Of a stretch of DNA of 64,000 nucleotides, positions 10,010 through 56,736 are shown one piece after another. Position 1 is the stretch's first letter, and every line of letters begins with the position of its first letter. Under the pieces are notes generated by a model, which was not told the origin of the DNA, ran no database searches, and saw only the letters and a program-made list of their open reading frames with translations. The DNA is taken from positions 84,745 to 148,744 of the forward strand of contig CAZAOB010000001.1 in NCBI GenBank assembly GCA_964486635.1. Reading direction: 5' to 3'. The DNA comes from an uncultured Caulobacterales bacterium. GTDB taxonomy: Bacteria > Pseudomonadota > Alphaproteobacteria > Caulobacterales > Parvularculaceae. Position numbers and translations under genes: made by a program.

Positions 10010-10189
10010 TCTTAGTTCTACTTTTCAAGGCAAACTCTCGTTCCTGCGGCGTCAAATAGAAGCGACTGCCAAAAATGCTGTTCCAATCGGCTCTGAAGGA
10101 TTTAAGGGATAGCCTCACGAACCGCAATCAAGCCAGTAATGCTCGCTACCCTCGATCCACACCAGCACGACCACGGAGCAGCCCAAGCC

Positions 10190-12334
10190 ATGCCCACAAG
10201 AGCCGAATTGACTATTGACCCGCAACTTACTGCGTTCGTCGAGAATGAAGCACTCAATGGCGTCGATGTCAGTGCGGACGAATTCTGGCGCGGGCTATCC
10301 GCGATCATAGCTGATCTGGGGCCTAAAAACGCGGACCTCCTCAACAAGCGTGATGCTCTGCAGGCCAAACTCGATGATTGGCACGGTCGTCATGCCAAAA
10401 CCTTCGATACTCAAGAGCTGACGACATTCCTCAACGAGATCGGATATCTCGCACCCGAGCCCGCGCCATTTGAGATTTCCACCGCGAACGTTGATGAAGA
10501 ACTCCGAGCCATCGCGGGGCCTCAGCTCGTTGTTCCCGCCAGTAACGCGCGTTACGCGCTTAACGCCGCCAATGCCCGCTGGGGCTCGCTCTACGACGCG
10601 CTTTACGGGACCGACGCGATTTCCGAAGAAGGCGGAGCCGAACGCGGCGGTGCGTATAACGCGGTGCGCGGCGCCAAAGCCATTGCCCGTGGCCGCGCCC
10701 TGCTCGATCTCGCGGCGCCGCTGGAGAACGGGTCGCATTCAGACACGCTCGCTTACGTCGTCGAAAACGGAGCGCTGACAGTCGAAACTGCTTCCGGCGC
10801 CACAAGCTTAAAACAGCCGGAAAAATTCGCCGGTTATCGCGGCGATCCCACATCCCCTTCCGCTATTTTGCTCAAGAACAACGGCCTGCATCTGGAAATC
10901 GTCATCGATCCCGCGAGCGCCATCGGAAAGACCGACAAGTCCGGCGTCGCGGACATTGTCATCGAAGCGGCGGTCAGCACCATCGTCGATTGCGAAGACT
11001 CAGTCGCCGCCGTCGATGCGGAAGACAAGGTCAGTGTCTATCGCAACTGGCTCGGCTTGATGAAGGGCGACCTCGAAGACACATTCCAAAAGGGCGGCAA
11101 ACAGGTCACGCGCAGACTCAATTCCGACCGCGACTTTGTTTCGCCGAACGGCAAGCCCCTCTCGCTTCATGGGCGGTCCATGTTGCTCGTCCGCAATGTC
11201 GGCCACCACATGCTGACCGGGATTATCAAAGACAAGAATGGCGACGAAGTCCCAGAGACCTTTATTGACGCAGCTGTGACGTCGCTCATCGCGCTGCACG
11301 ACCTCAAAAACGTCCGCAAAAACTCACGCGCCGGCTCAGTCTATATTGTCAAGCCGAAGCTGCACGGCCCGGAAGAAGTCGCCTTCGCCTGCGAATTGTT
11401 CGGCCGCATCGAAGCGATGCTCGGCATGACGAAAAACACCCTGAAAATCGGCGTTATGGACGAAGAAAAGCGCACTTCCGCAAATCTGTCGGCCTGCATT
11501 CATGCGGCGCGCGAACGGCTGGTATTCATCAATACCGGCTTCCTCGATCGTACCGGGGATGAAATCCACACGATCATGCACGGCGGAGCAGTTTTGCGTA
11601 AAGGCGCCATCAAGGACGCCGAATGGATCAAGGCCTATGAAGCGCGCAATGTCGGCATCGGCCTCGCCTGCGGGCTGTCTGGCCGCGCGCAGATCGGCAA
11701 GGGCATGTGGGCGGCGCCCGACATGATGGCGGCGATGCTGGAACAGAAAATCGGCCATCCCAAAGCAGGCGCCACAACTGCCTGGACGCCCTCGCCAACC
11801 GCTGCGGCGCTGCACGCCATGCATTATCATGAGGTCGATGTCTTTGCGCGTCAGCAAGAGCTCAAAGGCAAGAACACCGGCGATCTCGACAAGCTGCTGA
11901 CGCCGCCCTTTGCAGCCGGAGCGAATTTCTCAGAGGACGAAATCCGCGAAGAACTCGACAATAATGTCCAAGGCATTCTTGGCTATGTGGTGCGCTGGGT
12001 TGATCAGGGAGTCGGCTGTTCGAAAGTGCCGGACATTCACGATGTCGGCCTGATGGAAGACCGCGCGACCTTGCGCATTTCGTCTCAGCATATCGCCAAC
12101 TGGCTGATGCATGGCGTCGTTACGCGCGACCAGGTGATGGAGGCGCTGAAGCGCATGGCAGCTGTCGTCGACAAACAGAATGCCGGCGATCCGGCCTATG
12201 CTCCGATGGCGCCGGGCTTCGACGGGCCGGCATTCAAGGCCGCTTGCGCGCTGGTGTTTGACGGCGCAGAACAAGCCAATGGTTACACCGAGTTCCTGCT
12301 GACGAAGTTTCGCCTCGAAGCGAAGGCGCGCTAG
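10190..12334 (+). CDS. glcB: Malate synthase G
   Basis: Full-length similarity by eye to MSG (N-term ..[18 protein letters not shown].., ..[13 protein letters not shown].., ..MDEEKRTS.., ..[14 protein letters not shown]..). Start moved to ATG 10190 to match the usual MSG N-terminus. Confidence 0.95.
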
Positions 12335-43834: not shown

Positions 43835-45550
43835 CTATCTGGAGATGATGTAATCTGGGGATGTCATGACAAAGAGCACCGCCGTGCGGACGCGAAGCTC
43901 GTCTCGGCTGAAGGTTCCATTGCCGCCAGCGATTGCGTTAATTGCACTTACAATTCTGGATCGCGTCGAACCCGACAATGAGCGTGCCGTCAACAAAAGA
44001 TCGAGGTGATCGACGAGCGCCGCCGCATCGCCGGCGAGCGCCAATTCAGCCGTGTAGTCGGGAGCGAAGTTTGTGCGACCTCCGCGATTGACGATGAAGT
44101 CGTCCATAAAGTTCGCATAGCCGGTGACGCTGGCTGCCGTGGTGATCTGAAACTCTGGTGCGACCATTCCCGCTGCGGCGCTTTGCGTACCGGGCGCTAC
44201 GAAGCCAGGGCGATAGAAATTGAACACCGACGGAGATCTATAGGCCTGCTGATTTAGCCGAGCGGGTGAGCGGGTGTCGCGCACTTCCTCAACCGAGGCG
44301 ACGCGTGTGCGCGCGACTCCAAACGCCCGCGCCCAATGCGTGAAACGAATAACAGGTTCGCGGATCTTACCATAAGTGGAGTCAGCTGCAGCAGCCGGAC
44401 TGCGGGCCTCGACATCCATGAGGATCGCCGCAACCACCGCTCGCATGTCTCCGCGCCCGCCGCCTCCTGCAACTTCTCCGCCGGCGAACACATAGCGGCC
44501 ACTGCGAAAGGCATCCGCAACTCTGCCTACATATGCCGGAGATGGATTGCTGGTGACGAGGCGTTGTATCAACTGGCGCGAAATGAACGGCGCCGTATTC
44601 GGGTGCTGAAACAAAGTGTCCAGCGCAATTGAAATGCTTTGATCGCCGGATGTGTTGGCAGGTATGGTTCTGCCGAGGAATGACTTGGGTTCTTCCGAGT
44701 GCTCTTCATCATACATAGCGAGTGGCAGGTATTCAGAACGAACCGTGTCGGGCGATCCAAGAAACTGAGAGCGTTCGGCCCAGCTAAGGCCAGTAAAAAC
44801 TTTGGCAAGTTCCGTGACGTCGCCATTGTCATAGGTTTCAATTGGCTGGCCTCCGCCATCGAGACGAAGCTCGCCGTTAGGCGTTAACTCCAGTGTTCCG
44901 ATGGTGAAGAGCTGCATTATTTCACGCGCATAGTTCTCGTCTGGAACCACCTCGCGCGCAGCATCGGCCTTCTGATTTTGCAAGTAAGTCAGCCAAATCG
45001 CCATTGCGGGACTGTAGGTGACATTCCCCAAAGTCTGGCGGAAGTTCCCGAACGCGCCAGCCGACATCATATCCATGTAATTGGCCATGGCGACGGGCCG
45101 CTCCTCCAGCGCGCCGTCGCTGTAAGACGCGACCAGGATCTGTGAGAGCGCATAACCGACACGCTGTCGGAGTTGGTCATCGCCAGTTATCGCACGTGTC
45201 CAGAATGTCTCGCTAAGTTCGTTGCGACCCGCCTCGGCACCAGAGGCCTCCACCAGCAGAACGCTTTGCAACAGGGACTCCTGGGGCTTGGCGAACTGCC
45301 GATTGAACCAGGGTGCGTATCCGATCGAGCGCAACTCTTCGATGTCGGCGGTCGTTGCGCCAAAAGTCGCCTGGTTCAGAAATCGAGAAGCTTCGACCGC
45401 CGTAATCGCAGCCGTTGGCGAGGGCGCCGCCGCTTCTGGCGGCGGATCGCTGGGTGACTCGCTTCCACTGGAACAGGAGGCCGCGCCGACAAGCAGCGCT
45501 GCGCCTACCATTGCACGTTGAACGCATTTGACCGCGTGATTGATCGCCAT
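43835..45550 (-). CDS. DUF1800-family lipoprotein
   Basis: Lipobox LLVGAASC. Has the ..FLNQATFGAT..DIEELR..G...W...Q.. signature of DUF1800. Lies 10 nt upstream of its usual DUF1501 partner. Confidence 0.8.
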   Translation of the reverse strand: MAINHAVKCVQRAMVGAALLVGAASCSSGSESPSDPPPEAAAPSPTAAITAVEASRFLNQATFGATTADIEELRSIGYAPWFNRQFAKPQESLLQSVLLVEASGAEAGRNELSETFWTRAITGDDQLRQRVGYALSQILVASYSDGALEERPVAMANYMDMMSAGAFGNFRQTLGNVTYSPAMAIWLTYLQNQKADAAREVVPDENYAREIMQLFTIGTLELTPNGELRLDGGGQPIETYDNGDVTELAKVFTGLSWAERSQFLGSPDTVRSEYLPLAMYDEEHSEEPKSFLGRTIPANTSGDQSISIALDTLFQHPNTAPFISRQLIQRLVTSNPSPAYVGRVADAFRSGRYVFAGGEVAGGGGRGDMRAVVAAILMDVEARSPAAAADSTYGKIREPVIRFTHWARAFGVARTRVASVEEVRDTRSPARLNQQAYRSPSVFNFYRPGFVAPGTQSAAAGMVAPEFQITTAASVTGYANFMDDFIVNRGGRTNFAPDYTAELALAGDAAALVDHLDLLLTARSLSGSTRSRIVSAINAIAGGNGTFSRDELRVRTAVLFVMTSPDYIISR

Positions 45551-45727: not shown

Positions 45728-48700
45728 CTAAAACAAAAAGTCATCCTGATGGAGGTCGGCGACGAGGACGCCATTGAGGGTGATGGAGCCCGCGCCAAGG
45801 ATGATGGTGGTGTCGGTTCCGTCGTCGGATGCGTTGGCGAGAATGTCGGCGAACTCATCGAACGCCGCGCCGAAGCCCGAGATGAAGATGACATCGTCGC
45901 TGGCTTCGCCCGCATTGAAGCCGTTGATGAGGTCGTCGCCGTCTCCCATGGCGTATTCAAAACGGTCATCGCCACCGCCGCCATTGATTTCATCATCGCC
46001 GGTTCCGCCGATCAGCGTGTCATTCCCGACATCGCCCAAGAGCACATCATTGTCTGCGCCGCCGTTGAGCAGATCATCGCCGCCGCCGCCATTCAGCGTG
46101 TCGTTTCCGGCGTCGCCATAAAGCTCGTCATTGTCCACATTGCCGAAGAGCTGATCGGCGCCGTCACCGCCACTCAACGTGTCGAGGCCGGCCCCGCCAA
46201 ACAGCGTGTCGTTTCCGCCTTCGCCGTTGAGCAAGTCGTTGCCATTAGACCCGGCGAGAAGATCGTCGCCGGTCCCGCCATTCAGCGTGTCGGTTCCATT
46301 GCCGCCATAGAGTTCGTCATTTTCGGTTCCGCCGAACAGCAGATCATCGCCATCGCCGCCGAGCACGGTGTCATTGCCGGCGTCGCCATGGACCGTGTCA
46401 TCGCCGCGTGTGCCGGCGACGAGATCATTTCCGTCATCGCCGTGGACGAGATCGTCGTCATTGCCGCCCACAGCGGTGTCGCTTCCCGCGCCGCCATAGA
46501 CTTCGTCAAAGCCGCGCGTGCCGGAGATGTTGTCATTGCCGTCGCCGCCCAGCACAGTGTCGTTCCCGTCGCCGCCCAGCACAGTGTCGTCGCTGATCCC
46601 GCCATCGACAAAATCATTGCCGGCATTGCCGGTCAGCAGATCCGAGCCCGGGCCGCCATCCAGAGTGTCGGCGCCGGAACCGCCGTAAAGCTCATCAGTG
46701 CCGTTGCCGCCTTCGAGATAGTCATCGCCCTCGCCGCCAGCGAGCGTGTCGGAACCAAACCCCGCCGAGAGATGATCGCCTTCCGCGCCGCCGAAAAGCT
46801 GGTCATTACCATCACCGCCATAAAGAAGATCCTGGCCAGCGCCGCCGGCAAGCGTATCGAAACCGGCGTTGCCGCGAATCTCGTTGTTGGCGGAGTTGCC
46901 GGCGAGAAAGTCATTTCCCGATCCGGCGTCCATGTTTTCGATGACCGTATCCGGCGCAATGAACAACGTCCGGTGGTTGACGCCGATCAACGATCCGTCC
47001 GTCAGTGAGTAATAGGAAATGTCCGTACCCACATCGATCCACGACCCGGGCGTCAGATTGATGGAAAGGTCGGATGTTCCCGGCAGGTTCAACGTATCGT
47101 TTCCGCCATAGTCCCAAATCGTGGCGAAGATACGGTCAGTATTTTGCAGCGCATAAATCGTGTCGCCGCCGAGCGTCGTCGTGTTGACGCCATAAGCGGC
47201 CTGCAGCGCCTGAATGTCGAGCCACATCAATGTCTGAGGGAACAAATCAGGCAGCGCATCGACGCCGAGCGCGCGAAACCCGGACCGGCTCATGATCGAA
47301 TATTCGCCGCCTAGGAGTTTGAAATCGACGACGGACGCGAGGGCGGAGAAATCGGGATGCAACAGGCCGAGATTATGCGTGAACTCGTGAAGCGTGCGGT
47401 TATAGAGAAAATTATCGGTCGAAAGGCCCGCAGCGCCGAAATTGCGGAAGATTTCCGCATTCTCTTCGCCCTTGTCGACATTGACCCAGGTTTCGCCGGC
47501 CATCGTCCAGCCGGGAAAGCCCGACCAGCCAGTGACCAGCGCGCCGGACGCGCTGCCGAGTTCAATATCGGTATCGCCTATGCGGAACGTACCGGCCTCA
47601 ACGCCCGCATCGTCGACTTGGACAAACTGGATATTCGTCAACAGTTCGATATGGGCGATATTCGTCAGAAAGGCGTCGAGGACCACTCCGCTCGCGGGCA
47701 CGTATCCGATATTCCATTCCGACGCGACTGCGTTTTGAACGCCGGGCGACGTCGCCGCAACTGCACCAGGAATGCTGTAGGTGAGCGTCGTGACGCCGTC
47801 GCCGTCACGGTCGAGAAAGATGGGTTCCGGCGCGGTTGGGTCGGTGTATGTGAAGAAAATATCGATTTCAGCGTTGCCAGTAAGCGTGAAGATTTCGCTG
47901 GCACGGATTGAATAGGCGCCGCGATCATGGGCGGACACCGATACGCTGTAGTCGCCGACGGTTTCGCCGGCGCCCGCGCCGATGGTGATGTAATAGATTC
48001 CCGTCGAATCCGGTGTGAATGTAATCTGGTGCGCGTCGAATGGTCCGCCCGCGGTGAACGTTCCTTCGGCGGCGGCTGTTTCGATCAACATCGGATCGAC
48101 CGGATCACCGGAAGCGTCCACGAAGGTTACGATTTCAATATCGTCGATTTCACCGAAAAATCCGATGTCATTACCGTAAACCGTAATGTCGACGGCAACG
48201 CCTGCTTCGAGCGAGAGCGCGATTGTATCGGTGTCGCCATTGCTGCCGATATGACCGTCCTGCGTCTCCCAGATCGCGATCGGGTTGCTGGGATCGAGGT
48301 CGTTGGAAAAATCGTCCGCTGGCGCTGTAAACTCTTCGACACTTAGCGCCCAGCTTCCGCCGAGATCGCCGGAAAAGTTCGGACTGACAACGACAAAATA
48401 GGTCCCGTTTGCGGCAGGGGTGAACAGCAGCATGGCGGCGAGGCCGGCGGCGCTGTCATCGTCGGAAAATCCGAGGGAGGCGCCCGAAGCATTCAGAATG
48501 TCGCCAATGCGCGTATCGAAATCTGACGTCGTGCCGCTGTTTTCCGGCGTCAGCGTAATCCGGTAGGTTTGTCCGGCCAGGAGATCGACGCCAATCGCAT
48601 CGCGGTCGAAAAATTCACTCCCGGGAGAGGTAAAGCCAATATAAGTGCCGCCCACAGCTACGCGCTCGGGCGAAGTGTGATCGCCTGGGATCGTCGTCAT
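45728..48700 (-). CDS. Secreted RTX-repeat metzincin (serralysin-like zinc protease) with two N-terminal PPC-like beta-sandwich domains; probable type-I secretion substrate
   Basis: HEFTHNLGLLH (HExxHxxGxxH) encoded at 47357-47389 with a downstream SIMS Met-turn. A long block of GGxGxDxUx nonapeptides follows. Acidic/hydrophobic C-terminus ending ..DLHQDDFLF, with no N-terminal signal peptide. Confidence 0.9.
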   Translation of the reverse strand: MTTIPGDHTSPERVAVGGTYIGFTSPGSEFFDRDAIGVDLLAGQTYRITLTPENSGTTSDFDTRIGDILNASGASLGFSDDDSAAGLAAMLLFTPAANGTYFVVVSPNFSGDLGGSWALSVEEFTAPADDFSNDLDPSNPIAIWETQDGHIGSNGDTDTIALSLEAGVAVDITVYGNDIGFFGEIDDIEIVTFVDASGDPVDPMLIETAAAEGTFTAGGPFDAHQITFTPDSTGIYYITIGAGAGETVGDYSVSVSAHDRGAYSIRASEIFTLTGNAEIDIFFTYTDPTAPEPIFLDRDGDGVTTLTYSIPGAVAATSPGVQNAVASEWNIGYVPASGVVLDAFLTNIAHIELLTNIQFVQVDDAGVEAGTFRIGDTDIELGSASGALVTGWSGFPGWTMAGETWVNVDKGEENAEIFRNFGAAGLSTDNFLYNRTLHEFTHNLGLLHPDFSALASVVDFKLLGGEYSIMSRSGFRALGVDALPDLFPQTLMWLDIQALQAAYGVNTTTLGGDTIYALQNTDRIFATIWDYGGNDTLNLPGTSDLSINLTPGSWIDVGTDISYYSLTDGSLIGVNHRTLFIAPDTVIENMDAGSGNDFLAGNSANNEIRGNAGFDTLAGGAGQDLLYGGDGNDQLFGGAEGDHLSAGFGSDTLAGGEGDDYLEGGNGTDELYGGSGADTLDGGPGSDLLTGNAGNDFVDGGISDDTVLGGDGNDTVLGGDGNDNISGTRGFDEVYGGAGSDTAVGGNDDDLVHGDDGNDLVAGTRGDDTVHGDAGNDTVLGGDGDDLLFGGTENDELYGGNGTDTLNGGTGDDLLAGSNGNDLLNGEGGNDTLFGGAGLDTLSGGDGADQLFGNVDNDELYGDAGNDTLNGGGGDDLLNGGADNDVLLGDVGNDTLIGGTGDDEINGGGGDDRFEYAMGDGDDLINGFNAGEASDDVIFISGFGAAFDEFADILANASDDGTDTTIILGAGSITLNGVLVADLHQDDFLF
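45965..46930 (-). repeat. Coding tandem repeats: RTX (hemolysin-type Ca-binding) nonapeptide array, roughly three dozen units
   Basis: Protein segment ..GNAGFDTLAGGAGQDLLYGGDGNDQLFGG...GGGGDDRFEY. The repeat periodicity also produces a long spurious ORF on the opposite strand. Confidence 0.9.
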
Positions 48701-49276
48701 TGTCTAGAGCCCCTCAGTCGTGCCGCGGAGCGGCGGTTTCAAAAACGGGCCCCCGCCTATCTTCAAAACGCTGCAACCCTGATGGAAATCCCGCATCTGT
48801 TCAAGGTGTTCTTTGCCAAACTGACACTACATCATGCAAATCGGACTGAACGCGGTAGCTTCTGTGCGGCGCAACATAGCTACTTTCCGTTCAATTCAGC
48901 CGGAGCAAATGCGGACGCGATTAAATCGCCTCACTTCTGCCCGAGAAAAGCGGACTCCTGCGGAAAACCAGCGGGGCATAGGCGTGAAACTCGCTGATAG
49001 CACAGTGGCGCAAGTTGGAGATTGAACTCTGGGATCTATACTCATTCGCAATCCTCCAAGCATCGAACTCAGCCTGGTTAGTTTGTGGCCGGAACTCTCA
49101 GCACCAATAGTTCTTCGATTCCCGACTCGAGCCGAGCCGACACTCATGGTTGCAAATTGCTGAACTTCACCTCTCATCCAGAAAAATCAATCGTTTAACC
49201 CACTTACGCCGGTTAGCATCTTTGGATATGGTGACCGAAATTTGTGCGAGCCTCTCGCATACCGGGGAAACTGAAG

Positions 49277-50950
49277 ATGACAAACATTTTTATCAGCTAT
49301 TCACGCAATGATCGTCAGATCGTGCAGCAGATGGCAACAGCCCTGCAACAAGACGGCTTCAACGTTTGGTGGGACAGGGAAATTCCGCCGGGCAGCACAT
49401 TTGCAGACGTAATTGATAAGCGACTGAATGAGGCACACTGCGTTCTGGTGATCTGGTCTTCGTCTTCAGTGAAGTCGAACTGGGTGCAAGAAGAGGCAGA
49501 TGACGGACTGCAAAGTGGCCGCTTGATTCCGGTCATGATCGAAGAGATTGATCTGCCGCGTGGCTTCAAGCGCCTGCAAACTGCTAACCTGATCAACTGG
49601 CGAGGTGATCGCGCCGCACCAGAGTGGGTCAGCGTTGTCTCCGAAGTGCGCCGCCTTGTCGCGCAGGGCCAGGCTGCATCCGCACCGAAAGCGGCGGCTC
49701 CAAGGATTGCAACGCCAAAGCCCGCTGCACCAAAACAGTCAGCGCCGAAACCTGTTGCGCAGAAAGCATTGCCTTCACATGCGCCGAAGCAACCCAACGC
49801 GGCATCCAGCAGGCGCACAACGCCTCAGCCCGCCGCGAGGCAAGCGCCTGTCCCAACGCCGAAGAAGTCTGGCGGAGCCGGAGCGATTTTGGGACTGGTT
49901 GCTGTCTTCGTCGTCGCACTTGGCGCTGGCGGCTATTTTTTTCTAAAGTCTAAATCCGGCGAAGTGGTCCAAGCAGAAGCCGAAAGCCATCCCATTGCAT
50001 CAAGCGAGTTGCAAACCGCTGAAGCGACAGTTCCCGCGCCGGATGTTGGCGCAGCTCTGAATGAGGGTGTGGCGGAGCCGGCGGATGGAAACCTCACAGT
50101 ACTTGCCGCAGCTGACACTGAGTCGATGGCCGACCCGGTAGACGAGGTCCCAGTCGAAACCACTCCCGAGGTGACGGATGTGGAGCCACACAAGCCTCAG
50201 CCAGGTGAGATAATTCAAGATTGCGGATCTTGTCCGGAACTCGTGGTGATTGCTGCAGGCGCTTCGGTCATGGGCGCCCCCGATGGAGAGCGCAGCAGCG
50301 AAGCGGTCGAGACACCACAGATCCAAGTGCGCTTGGACTATTCATTTGCAATCGGGCGCTTTGAAGTAACACATGAACAGTGGGCGGCTTGCCTCGCCGA
50401 TGGCGGCTGCGGAGCATACGAACCAAGTGATAATGGCTGGGGTCGAGGCAACCGACCTGTGATCAATGTGTCTTACGACAATGCACTAGAGTACGTGGCG
50501 TGGCTGTCTGCAAAAACTGGCGCAAAATATCGTTTGCCCAGCGAGTCGGAGTGGGAGTTCGCCGCTCGTTCCGGAACTACCACGCCATTTTCGACTGGCG
50601 ACACTATTTCCACGCGCCAAGCAAACTTTAACGGCCAATATCCCTATGCTGGCGGAGCGCAGGAGCGATCTGCAGGAAAAACACTTGCGGTTGGAAGTTT
50701 TTCGCCAAATGCGTTCGGCATTTTTGACACGCAAGGCAACGTGTGGGAGTGGGTTAGCGATTGCTGGAAGCCTTCGCACCGCGATGCCGACCCATCAGGC
50801 ACGCCAGTTGGCGGCGTATGCTCACAGAGGGTATTGAAAGGCGGTGCCTGGAACGGCGGCGCGTGGCGTGCCCGCTCAGCACACAGAAAGCCCGCCAAGT
50901 CTTCGACCGGCGACTATGATGCTGGTTTTCGCGTGGTCCGTGAATTGTAA
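49277..50950 (+). CDS. Single-pass membrane protein: N-terminal TIR domain, Pro/Ala/Lys-rich linker, TM helix, C-terminal FGE-sulfatase-like (FGS/SUMF1-type) domain
   Basis: TIR_2-type start MTNIFISYSRNDRQ.., ..VLVIWSSSSVKSNWVQEE.. (S.W...E motif). TM GAGAILGLVAVFVVALGAGGYFFL (about 49871-49945). FGE fold motifs ..RFEVTHEQW.., ..RLPSESEWEFAAR.., ..GNVWEWVSDCW.., ..VLKGGAW.., ..GFRVVR... Start set to ATG 49277 behind GGGGAAA. Confidence 0.85.
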   Translation: MTNIFISYSRNDRQIVQQMATALQQDGFNVWWDREIPPGSTFADVIDKRLNEAHCVLVIWSSSSVKSNWVQEEADDGLQSGRLIPVMIEEIDLPRGFKRLQTANLINWRGDRAAPEWVSVVSEVRRLVAQGQAASAPKAAAPRIATPKPAAPKQSAPKPVAQKALPSHAPKQPNAASSRRTTPQPAARQAPVPTPKKSGGAGAILGLVAVFVVALGAGGYFFLKSKSGEVVQAEAESHPIASSELQTAEATVPAPDVGAALNEGVAEPADGNLTVLAAADTESMADPVDEVPVETTPEVTDVEPHKPQPGEIIQDCGSCPELVVIAAGASVMGAPDGERSSEAVETPQIQVRLDYSFAIGRFEVTHEQWAACLADGGCGAYEPSDNGWGRGNRPVINVSYDNALEYVAWLSAKTGAKYRLPSESEWEFAARSGTTTPFSTGDTISTRQANFNGQYPYAGGAQERSAGKTLAVGSFSPNAFGIFDTQGNVWEWVSDCWKPSHRDADPSGTPVGGVCSQRVLKGGAWNGGAWRARSAHRKPAKSSTGDYDAGFRVVREL

Positions 50951-51005
50951 CGACGATTTATTTGGCCGTTTTCCGTATGCATTGACGCTGGTTCCTGCTC
51001 GACGT

Positions 51006-53492
51006 TCAGCTCGTACCAGCAGAGTGTGTGGGTGAAATGATCACAGGCGGGCTCATCACCGGGCGACGACGGAAGACGCTCGGTGATGCAAATTCCCCAG
51101 GCACGCGCCCTTGACGACGCCAACTAACGATATCGCCAGTGCCGCCAGTGCCGAGACTTTCATTGCCGTCCCAAACTGCAATCAGCACGTCCGCTCGTTC
51201 GGCAATGTAGGCGCCAGCCAGCGCGTATTGCCTTTCTCTTGCGGCGGGATACGTCCCGTCTCCATAAGTGAGACTTACATCCGTCAGATCGCCAAACTTT
51301 AAGGGGAGTTCAATATAGCGTTCGCTCAGTGCTACGAGCCTGCGCAGCTTTTCTGCAGGACCCTCTCCTCTACTCGTTGCTGATCGCGACCGCTCATAAT
51401 CCTGACTGTAGGCGTCATATGGCATCGGCAACGGCACCCAGTAGGGGATATTCAACTCCAAAGCGATCTCGGCGGCAATGGTGTCAGTGCCTTCGGCGAG
51501 CGCTGTCAATATGACTGGCGCGCGATCGGGATTAGCGGCAATTTGTCTACCAATCTCCTCCCTCAGCGATTTGCGAATGTGTTCCTGATCTAGATCGCGA
51601 TTGCTACCGGGGCGATGGCCAACGACGCCGATAACGAATTCACGTTTTATCTCTAAACCAACGCAGGCCACAGTTTCCTGAAGGCGCGATGCAAGACCCT
51701 TATCGAATGTTTTCTCGTTGTCTGACAGCGCGGACCAAGGACGCAGCAAATCATGGCGGCGGGCTGCATCAACCCGCTTTTTTCCATACGCCCAACCACT
51801 GAGAAATCGCTCATTCAGCCAGCGGTGATGTTCCATCTTGGCGAGCAATTCATGCTCATCATCTGTAAGATTGAGCCGAGCGTCCGCAGATTTTTTTTCC
51901 GTGATCCGAAAGCGCATCGCTGTCGCTTTGGCCCAAATGTGATCGGCCGCCTGCCGACTCGATTCCCGGAACTCTTGCGGTAGTCTTTCCCACTCACGCT
52001 CCGCCCTCAGCGTTACCGAGGCTTCAGCTGCGGCTGTCCCACGCGAGCCGCTTCGATCGCCGACGTAGCTAAAATGCAGATGCTTGGCAATTTCCTCACG
52101 CATTGAGTCGATCAACGTAGGAACAAAAAAATCATCCTGATCGCCGGTGAGAATGTCTTCGACCGCGCCAAATGCAAAAATCCCGTCCGGAATTTCATTT
52201 TCGACCTCCAGACTGTGCCCGGAGTGCTGGTCATGAACGCGGCGATCAACATTTGAACGCAATAGCTCACCGATGCCGCGCGTGTTCGCCAAGTGGACAA
52301 GGATCGGAGCATTGACTCTCCTCACCCCCCCTTCACCCGCATCGGGGCGAGTCAACAGCAGCCGCCGAAGTGACAAGGCGACATTGACCGAAACTTCAGG
52401 CTGTTCATAGCAAACCACGTGCAGTGTAGATTGTTCCGGCAGCCGAGAATAATCGTTCGAAGAAATCCCATTCGGGTGAATTGTGAGCAGACGAACATCG
52501 AGGTTCGCCATCTTGCCGATCTCTGGGATCAAGGCTCGAATTTCATGCCGGCAATCATCCGGCTGCGCCGTAAACAAAGTGATGTTGACGCGGTTTTCAC
52601 TTGCACTCGTGCTCTGACGCAAGGTTTCGACGATCACTTGCGTAGACAAGGCGTTGTGTCCGTAAATGCACAAATGCAGAGCTGATTGGCCCTGCGCATC
52701 CGCATAGATCTCGGGTGGATGCGCCCGAATGACCCGCCGCGCTGCAATTTCCTCGATACTGAAGAACCGCGGACGCGCCGATTCAGACATTCCGGCAAAC
52801 TTGAAGTATTCCCCAAGGCGAACACCAAAGCCCGCCTCTTTCAGGCGCACCCAAAGGTCGCGATCCGATTTTCTTGAGGCTGAACCGATGCGTGCTTTGC
52901 CACGAATTTCAGCATTTGCCGAAAGGACAAATTGAAGACTGTCCGTTGCTTCTTGCAGAAATGATATCGCTATCCGTGAACGATGAATTCGCGCACGCGC
53001 GAGCACTGAGCGCGAGCCCGGATCACCCTTGATTAAGATTGCGCCGCCGCGCCGACACTTCGCGGCCAACGCATTCGGCGGGTTCGGATCAATGATCACG
53101 ACGCCTGTTCGCTTTTTCACCTGGTTGAAAGACGCGAGAAGGAACAGCGTTTCATCGTTTAGCCCCGCCAGAACCGCATGGCCCGAAATGCGGGACAGTC
53201 GCAGCGTTTGCCAAACATGGAGGAACAGCTGCGCCGTGAACAACTCGACAATGCCAACTATCGTGAATACAGGCGCCACGTAGGCCTGCATTTTTACAAA
53301 GGTGTTCACGTCCTGCTGAAAGGCCCAGTCGCCACTAAGCACAAACAGCTGAAGGATCTTATAGGCATCATAATAAACAGACCCAGGGCCGCCACCATAG
53401 ACCTGCAGCGACACGACACCCGCGTAAACAAAGATCGCGAAGAGGATTGCTAGACCGACAAGCCTCTTGGTTTGACCGTTTAGGTCCGACAT
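51006..53492 (-). CDS. 2-TM protein with two degenerate TrkA-N/RCK-like domains, a RyR-type repeat module and a C-terminal SLOG (Smf/DprA-LOG)-like domain
   Basis: TM1 LVGLAILFAIFVYAGVVSL and TM2 YVAPVFTIVGIVELFTAQLFL. TrkA-N-like pattern GHAVLAGLNDET..VVIIDPN..ILIKGDPGS..L..A.I, then a second copy (LHLCIYGHNALS..). RyR-like ..LLAKMEHHRWLNERFLSGWAYG...RHDLLRPWSALSDNEK... DprA/LOG-like VIGVVGHR...ILTALAEGTDTIAAEIALE...VLIAVWDG..LGTGGTGDIV. The ORF itself is solid; the domain names are motif-level calls. Confidence 0.75.
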   Translation of the reverse strand: MSDLNGQTKRLVGLAILFAIFVYAGVVSLQVYGGGPGSVYYDAYKILQLFVLSGDWAFQQDVNTFVKMQAYVAPVFTIVGIVELFTAQLFLHVWQTLRLSRISGHAVLAGLNDETLFLLASFNQVKKRTGVVIIDPNPPNALAAKCRRGGAILIKGDPGSRSVLARARIHRSRIAISFLQEATDSLQFVLSANAEIRGKARIGSASRKSDRDLWVRLKEAGFGVRLGEYFKFAGMSESARPRFFSIEEIAARRVIRAHPPEIYADAQGQSALHLCIYGHNALSTQVIVETLRQSTSASENRVNITLFTAQPDDCRHEIRALIPEIGKMANLDVRLLTIHPNGISSNDYSRLPEQSTLHVVCYEQPEVSVNVALSLRRLLLTRPDAGEGGVRRVNAPILVHLANTRGIGELLRSNVDRRVHDQHSGHSLEVENEIPDGIFAFGAVEDILTGDQDDFFVPTLIDSMREEIAKHLHFSYVGDRSGSRGTAAAEASVTLRAEREWERLPQEFRESSRQAADHIWAKATAMRFRITEKKSADARLNLTDDEHELLAKMEHHRWLNERFLSGWAYGKKRVDAARRHDLLRPWSALSDNEKTFDKGLASRLQETVACVGLEIKREFVIGVVGHRPGSNRDLDQEHIRKSLREEIGRQIAANPDRAPVILTALAEGTDTIAAEIALELNIPYWVPLPMPYDAYSQDYERSRSATSRGEGPAEKLRRLVALSERYIELPLKFGDLTDVSLTYGDGTYPAARERQYALAGAYIAERADVLIAVWDGNESLGTGGTGDIVSWRRQGRVPGEFASPSVFRRRPVMSPPVIISPTHSAGTS

Positions 53493-53689
53493 AAATGTCC
53501 TTTGTGTTGCAACTTCGTCAATCTAGAGCCCTTATACTGTGACACTTACTCCGCGAGACTTGGACTGCTGGCACACGTCAGCCAATCTTCAATCGCTACA
53601 ATGTAGGGTACTGAGTAGAACCCGCAGTTACATCAAACCCGCTTCACGTTCTTCGGTCTCGAGTCTTCTTTTGAACATTGTTCGCGGCG

Positions 53690-54296
53690 ACGGTAAAATG
53701 GCTGTATCTAAGGCGGCGGTCAATTATTGTGGGTGACAATCGCAGAATTAAACTCGTCATAGGGCGTACCAATGTGACAGGCCGCAATTGCTTAAAATGT
53801 GACCGTACGCGACCGATCGGAGCTAAATCCGCTCCCCCTATCGTATTGCGGAGACCAGCATTGGTTAGGTTGGCGAGAAGATTCCACCCACGAACGGCTC
53901 CGTTGATTGATTGACCATACGAATGCAGCAACTTGTTCCCTGGCAATTATTCAACAGCGTCTCGCCGCGATCTGCTTGGCTGTACCTTCAAAGATACAAT
54001 CGGGACCGACCCGGGAAACCTCCACTTATGGAGTTGATAGCTGGTTCGCACTAGGACGACGAAGCGCCGAGCAGACTCCAACGCCAAAGCCGAACGGCAC
54101 TAGCGATCGGCTCGATGTGGCTGACGTTTGGATGACGGTGCGACGCGAGGTTCTCAACGCCGAGTGGTTCGCCACTATCGATCAGGCGAAAACGGTCATC
54201 GGAAGATGGCTCAGGCAGTACAAAACCGTGCGCCCGCATCAGGCCCTTGGCATGAGGCCTCCGGCGCCGGAAACTCTATCAGAAGTTGGCACATAG
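53690..54296 (+). pseudogene. Decayed, 5'-truncated IS3-family (rve/DDE integrase) transposase remnant
   Basis: The last about 65 codons read ..VRREVLNAEWFATIDQAKTVIGRWLRQYKTVRPHQALGMRPPAPETL, the canonical C-terminus of IS3-type OrfB. Upstream frames keep only faint traces (..KWLYL.., ..IQSGP(T)RE.. for SDNGPEF, ..PKPNGTSDR.. for P..NG..ER) interrupted by stops and frameshifts. The 5' limit is approximate. Confidence 0.6.
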
Positions 54297-54337: not shown

Positions 54338-54499
54338 TCACTTCGGCAAATTCTGCTCAAGGTCGTCATCGAGCAAAATGCGCTCGGCCGCGCCATCCAT
54401 ATCGTCATATTGACCGGACTTCACCGACCAGATGAAAACCGCGAGGCCAGCAGCACCCATGATCAATGCAATCGGGATGAGATAGATAAGCGCTGTCAT
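54338..54499 (-). CDS. ccoS: cbb3 oxidase maturation protein CcoS/FixS (53 aa; below the ORF-track cutoff)
   Basis: Own translation: MTALIYLIPIALIMGAAGLAVFIWSVKSGQYDDMDGAAERILLDDDLEQNLPK. This is the typical CcoS TM helix plus the SGQ(Y/F)DD motif. Its ATG overlaps the ccoI stop (ATGA). Confidence 0.8.
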   Translation of the reverse strand: MTALIYLIPIALIMGAAGLAVFIWSVKSGQYDDMDGAAERILLDDDLEQNLPK

Positions 54500-56736
54500 G
54501 CGGTTTCCTTTGCGTTGCGGATTCGCAATGCATTCAGCGTTACGACGACGGATGAACCCGACATGGCAAGCGCGGCGATAAGGGGCGTGACGAACCCAAA
54601 CACGGCAAGCGGTATGGCGCAGACATTATAGAGCGCTGCAAAAGCAAAATTCTCAAGCACGCGTCTGCGCGCCTGTACTGAAATGTCATACGCAGTCACA
54701 ACGGAACGTAGGCTGTCGCCCTGAAGCACGAAATCGGCCGCAGCCTGGCTTGCATCAGCAGCCGTTCCTGGCGAGAGCGAAGCATGGGCGGCCGAAAGGG
54801 CCGGCGCGTCGTTCAGTCCATCGCCGACCATCGCCACCTTTGCGCCTTTTGCGCTGAGTTCAGACAGGCGTGAGATTTTGTCGGCCGGCGTCATCTCCGC
54901 CCGCCATAGGTTTAGGCCAACAGATCTGGCGATCCGTTCCGCGGGCGCGCGGCGGTCACCGGTCAACATTTCTGACTCAATATGTCTGTCGCGAAGATCG
55001 GCGATCGATTGCGCCGCATCGTTCCGAAGCCGGTCCTCAAAAGTGAACCGAACCGGCTCAGCGTCGCCAAGCCTGAGCCACGCTTCCGACAACGCGCTCT
55101 GACCGGCACTCCCGGCGCCGACCCAGTCCGCGCGCCCGAACCGCGCATTGCTTTCGCCGATCACGCCTTCCACACCAAAGCCGGGGATGTCGCGCGCTTC
55201 GTCGGCGAGCGCGCCGGGACCGGCAGCTTCGACGATAGCGCGCGCGAGTGGATGACGGCTCACGCGCGCAAGACTTGCAGCCTGCATCAAAACCGCTTCC
55301 GAGATCTCTTCTCGATTGGCGAGGCTCATCCGGCCATGAGTCAGCGTGCCGGTTTTGTCGAACACGAACGTATCGACTTCCGCGAGGCGCTCCAAAGCGT
55401 CGCCGGATTTGACCAGCACGCCGGATTTGAACAAGCGCCCGGTGGCCACAACCTGCACCGCTGGCGCGGCGAGCCCGAGCGCACAGGGGCAAGTTATAAT
55501 CAGCACCGCGACAGCATTCATGATAGCGACGCGCAATCCCGCATCGCCGATCACCAACCATCCGAGGAATGTCGCGAGCGCCAGCGAGTGCACGACCGGC
55601 ACATAAAGCGCCGCAGCACGATCTGCGAGGCGCACATATTTACTTTTGCCCTGTTCACCGGCTTCAATAAGCCGCGTCAAATCGGCAAGCAGGGAGTCTT
55701 CGACCCGCGCAGTTGCGCGCATCACCAGTTTCGAGGAGAGGTTGAGCACGCCCGCATATAGCTTATCGCCTGACTTCATCGAGGCTGGCGCGCTTTCGCC
55801 GGTCACAAGCGATACATCGACCTCAGACGCGCCGGTTTCGATTACCCCGTTCACCGGCGCCCGGTCGCCAGGCGACAATAGAATTCGTTCTCCAACCGCG
55901 ATATCGCGCGCGGAAACCGCCTCGAGCCTTCCGTCATTGCGAAATCGCGTGGCGGCGGTCGCTTGCATGGCGATCAAGCCTCGCGCTGCCTCTCTTGCTC
56001 GCGCGCGCAGGCGGTGATCGAGCCACCGGCCGATGAGCAAGAAGAACAAAAGCATCACCGCAGCGTCGAAATAGGCGTCTTCACCGTGATTGAGCGTTTC
56101 AAAAATACTCACCGCGAGCGACAACAGCACGGCGAGCGAGATCGGCACGTCCATATTGGCGCGCCCCTTTTTCAGTGCGGCCAATGCCGAATTGAAAAAC
56201 GGCCTGCCCGCGAAGGCAGCAGCCGGGATTGCGATCATCCCGGAAATCCAGTGCATCATCATGCGCGTCGCCGGGCCCATCTCACCGCCAGCCCCGGCCC
56301 AGACAGCAACGGACAAAAGCATGATGTTCGCCGCCGCAAAGCCCGCGACGGCGAGGCAGCGCAACAGAAAACGTCCTTCATCATCGCTTTGCGCTATGGC
56401 GGCTTTCGGGTCGAATGGCGTCGCACGATAGCCGAGATCGGAGATTTTTTGCGTGATGTCCCGTGGGCGCAAACCAACATCGCGCCAGGTGACGGCGAGC
56501 TTTCCGGTCGAAAGATTGAGCCGCGCGGCATCGATCCCGGGCAGTGTCTTCAGCCCGCCCTCGATCTTTGCAATACAGCCGCCGCATTTGGCGCCGTAGA
56601 CAGACAACTCCAACTGGCGCGTCCCGTCACGTAACAGCCTGACAAAAGGCGCGGGATCGATCACGCTGGCGTCAAGCGCAGGCTCCATGCCGCTCGGGCA
56701 TCCTGGCGCCGCATCGATGACGCTTGTCGCGCTCAT
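54496..56736 (-). CDS. ccoI: Copper-translocating P1B-type ATPase CcoI/FixI
   Basis: N-terminal HMA domain (GAKCGGCIAKIE), CPC in TM6 (ITCPCALGLAAP), DKTGTLT phosphorylation site, MVGDGLNDAP hinge. Confidence 0.95.
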   Translation of the reverse strand: MSATSVIDAAPGCPSGMEPALDASVIDPAPFVRLLRDGTRQLELSVYGAKCGGCIAKIEGGLKTLPGIDAARLNLSTGKLAVTWRDVGLRPRDITQKISDLGYRATPFDPKAAIAQSDDEGRFLLRCLAVAGFAAANIMLLSVAVWAGAGGEMGPATRMMMHWISGMIAIPAAAFAGRPFFNSALAALKKGRANMDVPISLAVLLSLAVSIFETLNHGEDAYFDAAVMLLFFLLIGRWLDHRLRARAREAARGLIAMQATAATRFRNDGRLEAVSARDIAVGERILLSPGDRAPVNGVIETGASEVDVSLVTGESAPASMKSGDKLYAGVLNLSSKLVMRATARVEDSLLADLTRLIEAGEQGKSKYVRLADRAAALYVPVVHSLALATFLGWLVIGDAGLRVAIMNAVAVLIITCPCALGLAAPAVQVVATGRLFKSGVLVKSGDALERLAEVDTFVFDKTGTLTHGRMSLANREEISEAVLMQAASLARVSRHPLARAIVEAAGPGALADEARDIPGFGVEGVIGESNARFGRADWVGAGSAGQSALSEAWLRLGDAEPVRFTFEDRLRNDAAQSIADLRDRHIESEMLTGDRRAPAERIARSVGLNLWRAEMTPADKISRLSELSAKGAKVAMVGDGLNDAPALSAAHASLSPGTAADASQAAADFVLQGDSLRSVVTAYDISVQARRRVLENFAFAALYNVCAIPLAVFGFVTPLIAALAMSGSSVVVTLNALRIRNAKETA

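Follow-up and report, generated by a model that had tools for sequence, protein, structure and literature searches.

A membrane-anchored TIR protein with a predicted extracytoplasmic sensor and its channel-like neighbour: a candidate Thoeris-like signalling pair in Parvularculaceae

To our knowledge, the bacterial TIR signalling described so far (Thoeris) responds to infection sensed inside the cell. A locus from an uncultured Caulobacterales bacterium of the Parvularculaceae raises the question of whether TIR signalling could also start from outside the membrane, and of what would receive the signal. The locus lies in a stretch of 64,000 nucleotides (nt) (GCA_964486635.1, contig CAZAOB010000001.1, positions 84,745 to 148,744 of the forward strand), here called the window, whose own numbering is used throughout. 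Its gene at 49277–50950 encodes a TIR domain, a predicted transmembrane (TM) helix and a C-terminal domain of the FGE fold (TIR-TM-FGE), and it stands tail-to-tail with a gene for a channel-like protein containing RCK, RyR and SLOG domains. We suggest, with moderate confidence, that the TIR gene belongs to a Thoeris-like module of two genes that signals across the membrane, with the channel-like protein as its partner.

Architecture and predicted topology of the TIR protein

The gene and the parts of its product are as follows.

49277–50950, + strand: gene of the TIR-TM-FGE-like protein, candidate sensor plus signal generator, 557 amino acids (aa) (open reading frame, ORF; Pfam TIR_2 and FGE-sulfatase; orthologues)
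49277–49666, + strand: TIR domain, residues 1–130, predicted cytoplasmic (TIR_2, E = 3.3e-26; closest to solved bacterial TIRs producing isomers of cyclic ADP-ribose, cADPR)
49481–49495, + strand: active-site motif W69-V-Q-E-E73 (aligned to AbTIR W204...E208 and to PdTIR)
49481–49483, + strand: codon of W69, the cyclase-associated Trp
49493–49495, + strand: codon of E73, the catalytic Glu
49667–49873, + strand: Pro/Ala/Lys-rich low-complexity linker, residues 131–199, net positive (composition, charge)
49874–49945, + strand: single predicted TM helix, residues 200–223 (sole Kyte-Doolittle peak; charge bias in the family)
49946–50200, + strand: acidic Ala/Glu/Val/Pro-rich linker, residues 224–308, predicted periplasmic (composition)
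50201–50947, + strand: PvdO-like FGE-fold domain, residues 309–557, predicted periplasmic sensor with six conserved Cys (PvdO structure 5hha, E = 5e-38)

We took the ATG at 49277 as the start of the 557-aa protein because the N-termini of the orthologues read MT[DN]IFISYSR; an alternative GTG start of the same ORF, which ends at 50950 (+ strand), lies upstream at 49244. About 30 full-length orthologues were found, with identities from 42 to 66%. The Pfam TIR_2 model spans residues 4–108 with 92.6 bits, where the cut-off is 28 (E = 3.3e-26); two further models, TIR and ThsB_TIR, likewise score over their own cut-offs. A first-pass annotation, made from the sequence alone, had described a TIR_2-type domain at the very start with no signal peptide, and indeed the first TIR strand forms the extreme N-terminus. 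The same annotation had described a Pro/Ala/Lys-rich low-complexity linker of about 60 residues, which measures 69 aa (residues 131–199, with 18 Ala, 15 Pro, 8 Lys, 6 Gln and 6 Ser), and one strongly hydrophobic helix. The latter corresponds to the only hydrophobic segment of the protein (residues ~200–223), with a 19-aa Kyte-Doolittle maximum of 2.29 and every other such stretch at or below 1.6; residue 223 ends at 49945, which is also where the feature annotated first had ended. Further on, the FGE-sulfatase model (PF03781) covers residues 319–555 (E = 4.9e-47). The TIR_2 and FGE-sulfatase matches both lie far outside what chance would give, and all the elements of the first-pass annotation were found where it had placed them.

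Exactly one hydrophobic segment separates both domains in every full-length orthologue. In an alignment of 28 TIR-TM-FGE relatives, on which all the conservation counts of the family are based, the 25 aa on the TIR side of the helix sum up to 122 Lys and Arg vs 35 Asp and Glu, while the 25 aa on the FGE side contain 45 and 107, respectively. By the positive-inside rule, the TIR domain would therefore be cytoplasmic and the C-terminal module would be outside. The six Cys of this module are near-invariant in the family, and in four cases the aligned residue of the periplasmic PvdO is also a Cys. Among the best 120 relatives of the FGE-like domain, 43 have a signal-peptide-like start and 9 have a Ser/Thr-kinase-1TM-FGE architecture, which suggests that this sub-type is habitually extracytoplasmic. 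The charge bias, the conserved Cys and the signal peptides of FGE-only relatives agree in placing the FGE-like domain outside the cytoplasm, as a prediction, and support the periplasmic location that had been proposed at first for everything after the helix.

The TIR active site

The solved structures nearest to the TIR domain are bacterial TIRs that make cADPR isomers (7uxr, E = 1.2e-8; AbTIR, 1.8e-6; PdTIR, 3.9e-6). Two adjacent residues, E72 and E73 (codons 49490–49495), had been put forward as the possible catalytic Glu. In the alignment with characterised bacterial TIRs, also proposed in the first-pass annotation as a check on the catalytic Glu and the BB-loop, the residue that matches the catalytic Glu is E73 and not E72, both for AbTIR (NYELD) and for PdTIR (QKELD). 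This residue, at the position of AbTIR E208 and SARM1 E642, is invariant (28/28 relatives), and the BB-loop Gly G39, equivalent to AbTIR G174, is present in 25/28. W69, four residues before E73 and at the position of AbTIR W204, was found in 22 of the 28. The roles of W204, E208 and the BB-loop Gly in AbTIR are taken from 10.1101/2022.05.07.491051, where W204 touches the substrate and its mutation drops the 2'cADPR output from 93% to 24%. The protein starting at 49277 thus has every element of the NADase/cyclase signature in its TIR sequence, which supports an enzyme-competent domain. An enzymatic TIR, rather than a pure scaffold, had been considered plausible, and E73, W69 and the BB-loop Gly all argue for it.

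Conserved pairing with a channel-like gene

The gene next door, not mentioned in the first-pass annotation, is conserved and is a likely output for the TIR domain. It is separated from the TIR gene by a short junction.

51006–53492, − strand: gene of the channel-like partner, 828 aa, with pore, tandem RCK, RyR and SLOG (ORF; Pfam RyR, weak TrkA_N)
50951–51005, no strand: convergent junction of 55 bp between the TIR gene and the channel gene (coordinates)

In orthologous loci, the gap between both genes ranges from 4 to 60 bp, or they overlap by 17 bp. Of the 13 distinct loci of the SLOG-bearing channel family, 11 have a TIR gene alongside, and the flanks vary from locus to locus. The channel gene is found tail-to-tail with TIR-TM-FGE orthologues of 66% and 52% identity, and the remaining flanking genes all differ. 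In other loci, the TIR gene carries a different sensor.

Window, L009, L010 and L015: TIR-TM-FGE gene beside the channel gene, convergent
L013, L024 and L025: TIR-WD40 gene beside the channel gene, same strand, gaps of 54–67 bp
L016 (Parvularcula mediterranea ZS-1/3) and L027: TIR-WD40 gene beside the channel gene, convergent
L014 and L026: TIR-TPR gene near the channel gene, with one gene between; same strand in L026
L011 and L012: channel gene, with no TIR gene seen

The two genes are on the same strand in 4 of the 11 paired loci (L013, L024, L025 and L026). All three TIR variants keep the catalytic Glu, and the residue at the W204 position is aromatic in each. Between the TIR domain and the sensor, there is one TM segment in the TPR variant and three plus three in the WD40 variant, and a crude hydropathy count predicts that the WD40 and TPR sensors are also outside. 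The pairing is further backed by the three sensor architectures and the two gene orientations.

The SLOG-bearing family is rare, with 12 clusters in a word-indexed search and 8 alphaproteobacterial loci in GTDB sampled at one genome per species. Relatives without SLOG were found in 8 distinct lineages, mostly actinomycete, and a metagenome scan for further partner loci returned almost only relatives of this kind. None of the approximately 6 SLOG-less lineages that could be inspected over at least 2.5 kb on both sides has a TIR gene near the channel gene. The hypergeometric probability for 11/13 vs 0/6 is about 0.001, a hand-computed value that ignores shared ancestry.

These counts bear on another explanation, in which the TIR protein would be a self-contained sensor and effector, depleting NAD+ as SARM1 or the TIR effectors of CBASS and pAgo do, with the channel being independent or secondarily sensing the fall of NAD+ or the rise of ADP-ribose (ADPR). 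Distant orthologues without a nearby channel gene would fit it, the catalytic Glu being invariant in all of them, and there is good documentation of bacterial TIRs that deplete NAD+ on their own (10.64898/2025.12.03.692087). On the other hand, unless the two genes are functionally coupled, it is difficult to account for the pairing of 11 out of 13 channel loci with TIR genes of three architectures in differing genomic contexts. The TIRs keep the cyclase-associated Trp or another aromatic residue, and two domains of the partner are of kinds known elsewhere to bind TIR products. We regard a self-contained TIR protein as improbable.

The module has relatives in Parvularculaceae, Hyphococcus and Marinicaulis, and the window is accordingly likely to derive from a marine alphaproteobacterium of this group. 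Both TIR-TPR loci have particularities. In L014, the channel gene is divided into two ORFs (L014:7726-10215, with ORFs at 7726–8178 and 8197–10215), from a frameshift, a pseudogene or an assembly error, and the gene between it and the TIR-TPR gene encodes a PEP-CTERM protein. In L026, an ORF of 150 aa with no Pfam match (L026:4461-4913, + strand) lies between the TIR-TPR and channel genes on the same strand, and it could be an accessory component of the TIR-TPR variant.

Pore and gating domains of the partner

The partner is composed of four regions, listed here from the N-terminus, with the filter-equivalent segment of the pore given apart.

53190–53492, − strand: pore module, residues 1–101, with TM1, short helix, loop and TM2 (modelled secondary structure; Foldseek matches to MthK and GsuK)
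53325–53345, − strand: filter-equivalent F50-V-L-S-G54-D55-W56 (profile alignment to MthK)
52143–53189, − strand: tandem RCK-type gating domains, residues ~102–450 (Foldseek; profile; Pfam TrkA_N)
51645–51872, − strand: RyR domain of the Repeat12 type, residues ~541–616, with H555, W558, R573, H580 and D597 (Pfam; RyR repeats in PDB)
51009–51644, − strand: SLOG-fold domain, residues 617–828 (domain model and Foldseek)

An AlphaFold model of the partner, built from 11 homologues (mean predicted local distance difference test, pLDDT, 78.9; predicted template modelling score, pTM, 0.77), matches GsuK (3e-9), the TrkA gating ring (3e-7), full-length MthK (4.5e-7), Slo1 and Slo2 in Foldseek, and these RCK-channel matches all have probability 1.00, with E from 3e-9 to 1e-5. 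A family profile of residues 1–215 matches the RCK of Kch (1.3e-6) and MthK (2e-5), and also GsuK. The same profile places G54-D55 on G63-D64 of the MthK filter TVGYGD. G54 is the sole invariant filter residue in the partner family, and the D55 position varies among D, S and E. The pore would belong to the K-channel superfamily in a non-canonical form, since its filter reads F-V-L-S-G-D; the partner was not called a K+ channel, as the TVGYG filter is not present. As in GsuK, MthK and the Slo/BK channels, a two-TM pore with a pore helix is followed by RCK gating domains. The differences are the F-V-L-S-G-D in place of TVGYGD, a degenerate Rossmann GxGxxG and the added RyR and SLOG domains. By model and profile, the partner would be an RCK-gated, channel-like member of the K-channel superfamily whose filter is non-canonical.

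The RyR domain scores 48.7 bits against a cut-off of 27.4 (Pfam PF02026) and matches RyR repeats in PDB at 1.9e-16. Residues 617–828 gave nothing meaningful by sequence, either in Pfam up to E = 10 or with the family profile against PDB sequences. Modelled alone, they reach a pLDDT of 86.8, and the top Foldseek matches all belong to the SLOG superfamily (YpsA, 6.8e-6; ShosA; the Moco-carrier protein; LOG TM1055; DprA). The ADPR-binding N-terminal domain of TRPM2 is also among the structural neighbours.

The modules of the partner occur in other combinations. An exhaustive profile search with E up to 1e-30 gave 1,140 representative clusters. Among them are RyR-SLOG proteins that stand alone, a fusion of SLOG-SLATT_3 type and a protein with the order CHAT-SLOG-TrkA_N-RyR. 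In this set of reshuffled proteins (P0227, P0235, P0159, P0189 and P0171), the SLOG plus SLATT_3 protein has 836 aa and the standalone RyR-SLOG about 300 aa, while the CHAT protease with SLOG, TrkA_N and RyR has 1153 aa and a protein with TrkA_N followed by four RyR repeats has 1298 aa. Both SLATT and CHAT serve as effectors in conflict systems that signal through nucleotides. A separate ORF in L033 (L033:4082-4777, − strand) that matches the partner SLOG profile (E = 1e-18) lies beside a SLOG-less RCK-RyR channel relative, so the SLOG module also occurs as a stand-alone neighbouring gene.

RyR and SLOG as candidate receptors

Both C-terminal domains of the partner have precedents as binders of TIR products. 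In type I Thoeris, the effector ThsA has SLOG as its receptor for 3'cADPR (10.64898/2025.12.03.692087). Among RyR-domain proteins of phages, RyDEP binds and cleaves 2'/3'cADPR through H75, W78, H100 and D117, and some of its homologues are nanomolar sponges (PMC13232231). RyR Tad gp68 binds 3'cADPR with a dissociation constant (Kd) of 43 nM, and 2'cADPR and cADPR as well, with ligand residues H129, W132, K147, H154 and D171 (10.64898/2026.06.04.730250). In a BLASTP alignment of gp68 with the partner (E = 2e-5), these five residues align to H555, W558, R573, H580 and D597, all of them invariant in the partner family. The H/W/H/D ligand residues keep their spacing of +3, +22 and +17. The search of the RyR domain against phage genomes by tblastn gave just 3 weak matches. 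We suggest from these residues and from the modelled fold that the partner has two putative receptors, that is, two domains that bind TIR-made nucleotides in other proteins.

The phage proteins are of the same Pfam family (PF02026, Repeat12) and their ligand residues H/W/(K/R)/H/D match those of the partner one-to-one. RyDEP and RyR Tad are small and soluble and block immunity by sequestering or cleaving 2'/3'cADPR, whereas the partner has its RyR domain built into a predicted membrane channel of the host and, encoded beside a TIR gene, this domain would act for the host as receptor or regulator. Both phage RyR preprints remark on the puzzling likeness to animal ryanodine receptors (PMC13232231; 10.64898/2026.06.04.730250). 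The eukaryotic axis of cADPR, RyR and Ca2+ release and the ADPR-gated TRPM2 also involve cation channels with RyR-R12 and/or SLOG modules, which could respond to nucleotides of the ADPR type, as those of the partner would. The pore families are unrelated (two-TM/RCK in the partner vs six-TM in the eukaryotic channels), and the likeness is restricted to domain content and gene neighbourhood.

A different division of labour would leave SLOG alone to receive the TIR signal, with RyR acting as a RyDEP-like glycosidase off-switch that linearises 2'/3'cADPR, or as an ATP/ADP sensor with no relation to the TIR. The TIR linkage follows the SLOG-bearing channels and not their SLOG-less RCK-RyR relatives, the RyDEP catalytic dyad H75/D117 corresponds to the invariant H555/D597, and RyR R12 also binds ATP/ADP (10.64898/2026.06.04.730250). 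The same dyad is kept in non-catalytic sponge-type homologues and in animal RyRs (PMC13232231), and its conservation does not, for this reason, imply that the RyR domain is catalytic. We consider SLOG as the only receptor unlikely.

Proposed mechanism and its weighing

A mechanism, whose steps we infer, can be put together from the computed results: the identity of each domain, the residues of the active and ligand sites, the predicted topology, and the conserved pairing in which sensors are exchanged. The TIR gene would encode a type II single-pass membrane protein with a non-catalytic PvdO-like FGE-fold sensor in the periplasm and the TIR domain in the cytoplasm. An extracytoplasmic ligand would bind or cluster the ectodomains, and the clustering would join TIR domains in a composite active site. 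The TIR would then cleave NAD+ to an ADPR-derived nucleotide, most likely a cyclic ADPR isomer and possibly linear ADPR, which would bind the cytoplasmic RyR (R12) domain, SLOG, or both, of the RCK-gated channel. The gating of the channel would shift, and the resulting ion flux would lead to growth arrest or death, as in abortive-infection-type defence, or to an adaptive ion response. As a complete outside-in path, from an interchangeable ectodomain (FGE-like, WD40 or TPR) through the membrane to a TIR ADPR cyclase, with a cADPR-type messenger gating a cation channel via RyR Repeat12 and/or SLOG, this scheme is tentative and more doubtful than the existence of the two-gene module.

Several observations weigh against the module as proposed. 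The two genes of the window are convergent and do not form an operon, and L011 and L012 are channel loci with no visible TIR gene. Four TIR-TM-FGE orthologues with 45–48% identity (L020 to L023) have no channel gene nearby, and hence the TIR protein seems able to work without an adjacent one. No recognised defence genes were found in the flanks of the loci examined, and the partner has 0 matches in the PADLOC and NCBIfam defence models. Without the TVGYG filter, the conduction and selectivity of the partner pore are uncertain. The receptor may be either RyR or SLOG, RyR also occurring in relatives with no TIR linkage, and the RyR domain, which keeps the H and D of the catalytic dyad, could degrade the signal instead of sensing it. 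As for the TIR protein, it matches only generic TIR-domain models and no model of a described Thoeris family.

The four orthologues are not in equivalent contexts. In L020 and L021, the gene stands by itself at a site that is syntenic between the two. In L022 and L023 (L022:6001-11841 and L023:6001-11650), the TIR-TM-FGE gene is followed by genes for TpsB (POTRA_2/ShlB) and a small TpsA (TPS domain), with different upstream flanks, and this two-partner-secretion pair may be a second recurrent context for the family. A POTRA_2 gene was also observed just past the channel gene in L005 (L005:14947-16146).

The same pathway could serve a physiological purpose, with no abortive infection, linking a cue of the envelope or periplasm (a metabolite, a cell-wall fragment or a secreted protein of a competitor) to ion or K+ balance or to the membrane potential. 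Such a role would agree with the lack of known defence genes in any locus flank and of a PADLOC or NCBIfam defence family for the partner, with the existence of housekeeping ligand-gated RCK channels (GsuK, MthK and Kch), and with the conserved chromosomal position of some TIR-TM-FGE orthologues (L020 and L021). Against it, swappable sensors on a constant pair of TIR and effector are typical of conflict systems, and FGE-type domains are recurrent sensors in such systems (PMC7159879) and also appear as immunity proteins in type VI secretion (T6SS). The patchy distribution, the low GC content at third codon positions (GC3) and the adjacent remnant of an insertion sequence (IS) are also unfavourable, and the SLOG type of the partner occurs with SLATT and CHAT effectors. 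We find a purely physiological role rather unlikely.

Relation to known systems

The arrangement of a TIR protein beside an effector with a nucleotide-receptor domain is that of Thoeris (type I, ThsB TIR and ThsA SIR2-SLOG). The window pair differs by the membrane-anchored TIR, the predicted extracytoplasmic sensor, the RCK-RyR-SLOG effector and the convergent genes. Phage defence has been demonstrated for type X Thoeris, formed by a TIR and the 'ion channel' effector ThsK (Yirmiya et al. bioRxiv 2025, 10.64898/2025.12.03.692087). In the accessible part of Table S1 of that work, the type X TIRs are of another type than the TIR of the window, and the partner is set against ThsK by description only. 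This Thoeris survey retained only TIRs in multigene operons, and the terms RyR, TrkA and PF03781/FGE do not appear in the accessible portion of its tables (10.64898/2025.12.03.692087). A full-text literature search, with most subscription journals outside it, returned no paper on TIR-TM-FGE proteins or on a TIR-linked RyR/SLOG channel.

The first-pass annotation had compared the protein with animal Toll-like receptors (TLRs). The likeness holds in part, given that the sensor is predicted outside, the TIR inside and one TM segment between them, but the order of the domains is reversed. TLRs and interleukin-1 (IL-1) receptors are type I proteins with a signal peptide, an N-terminal ectodomain of leucine-rich repeats (LRR) or immunoglobulin (Ig) type and a C-terminal TIR, while the protein of the window would be type II with an N-terminal TIR. 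The ectodomains also differ, LRR or Ig in one case and a PvdO-like FGE or C-type-lectin-like fold in the other. The TIRs of TLRs act as scaffolds, and that of the window has the full NADase/cyclase signature in its sequence. The likeness to TLRs is an analogy and not orthology. From its gene content, the window system would be an apparently new, Thoeris-like variant, and neither a TLR, an FGE, a PvdO nor a demonstrated member of Thoeris.

If the proposal is true, bacteria would be able, like animal TLRs, to launch TIR signalling on a cue from beyond the membrane too. It would be the first use of a RyR domain on the host side as a receptor for TIR signals, the missing counterpart to the phage RyR proteins, and a prokaryotic counterpart, with TLR-like topology, of the long-debated animal axis from cADPR to the ryanodine receptor. 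It would also offer a simple and tractable model for cADPR-type gating via RyR R12 or SLOG, a question still open for the animal RyR and partly resolved for TRPM2. The modular design, in which one effector is combined with three or more kinds of sensor ectodomain, would be attractive for receptor engineering. Experiments are feasible, as the cultured strain Parvularcula mediterranea ZS-1/3 carries one member.

The FGE-like ectodomain

The closest relative of the C-terminal domain is PvdO, whose structure 5hha matches it over the full length at the E-value listed above, and true FGE structures are more distant (1e-16 to 1e-18). The segment GGAWNGGAWRARS stands where FGE has GGSYxCHxSYCxRYR, and the FGE catalytic Cys pair (human C336/C341) is missing in 28/28 relatives. 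An FGE/SUMF1 enzyme was rejected on this basis, despite the shared fold. The PvdO equivalog (NCBIfam NF051459) was also rejected, with 169.4 bits against a cut-off of 500, and PvdO stays as the nearest relative only. A nonheme iron sulfoxide synthase of the EgtB/OvoA kind was discarded since no DinB family was found in the Pfam scan of the protein; the EgtB, SenA and OvoA scores in NCBIfam are far under their cut-offs. As the FGE, PvdO and EgtB/OvoA tests all fail, there is no support for the label 'SUMF1/EgtB/PvdO family nonheme iron enzyme' given in databases, which misleads for TIR-TM-FGE proteins. FGE-type domains are frequent targets of diversity-generating retroelements. Such an element was discarded here, with no template repeat in a sensitive blastn of nt 50201–50950 against the whole window.

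It is very improbable for the C-terminal domain to be instead the working part, a periplasmic enzyme such as a PvdO-like oxidoreductase, with the TIR as a regulatory or scaffolding appendage and not an NADase. PvdO is the best sequence match, it is needed for an oxidation step in pyoverdine maturation (NF051459 name, 5hha), and the NCBI annotation of the relatives goes in this direction. The low score (169 bits vs 500), the absence of the Cys pair in 28/28 relatives and the lack of a detected DinB-type domain all speak against it. An invariant catalytic Glu would be unexpected in a pure scaffold, and the sister systems have WD40 or TPR, which are binding domains, at the same position. The absence of the catalytic Cys pair of FGE suggests that the FGE-like domain is probably a binding module, and the sequence features of the ectodomain point, in the same way, to a probable ligand-binding role. 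Domains of the 'FGS' kind are treated in conflict systems as modules at the C-terminus that sense or neutralise (PMC7159879; PMC10907252), and Tsi3, a periplasmic FGE-like protein, works solely through binding its T6SS effector (10.1101/2021.05.21.445229). PvdO, FGE, Tsi3 and the FGS domains share the fold of the window domain, which differs by lacking the catalytic Cys pair and by scoring below the PvdO cut-off. In the kinase-TM-FGE relatives, the FGE-like domain is C-terminal after a TM segment or signal peptide, as in the window protein. A TIR as the N-terminal partner of an FGE-fold domain was not found described in the full-text literature search, which covered few subscription journals.

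Elsewhere, the PvdO-like FGE domain was observed fused to a reverse transcriptase (PF00078), an adenylate/guanylate cyclase (PF00211) and PG_binding_1 (P0062, P0113, P0102 and P0040-P0050). The same set of proteins contains further fusions to nSTAND/AAA_16 with TIR, to a caspase (PF00656) and to a Ser/Thr kinase, and many of the caspase-FGE proteins have a signal-peptide-like N-terminus.

Surroundings of the locus in the window

The IS remnant mentioned above lies beyond the channel gene.

53907–54296, + strand: transposase remnant, with only the C-terminal end of the rve_3 integrase core (Pfam rve_3, E = 3e-13, profile positions 23–67 only)

It keeps the last ~45 residues of the core and is located between the channel gene and a fixS/ccoS-fixI cluster. 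GC3 is 0.56–0.57 in the TIR and channel genes vs 0.62–0.70 in the neighbours, and this low value, together with the adjacent IS remnant, is consistent with a joint horizontal arrival of both genes. A promoter and terminator scan of 48600–53800 gave counts that are not above those of shuffled sequences.

On the other side, and divergent from the TIR gene across 576 bp, a gene at 45728–48700 (− strand) encodes a 990-aa protein with 10 matches to RTX calcium-binding repeats, an N-terminal PPC (pre-peptidase C-terminal) domain and a zinc-metalloprotease-like motif, HEFTHNLGLLH. A DUF1800 protein is encoded at 43835–45550 (− strand). Past the transposase remnant, the gene at 54496–56736 (− strand) encodes a copper-type P-type ATPase (HMA, E1-E2_ATPase), which in the identical Logan contig L001 heads a fixS-fixI-fixH-fixG-ccoP-ccoQ cluster.

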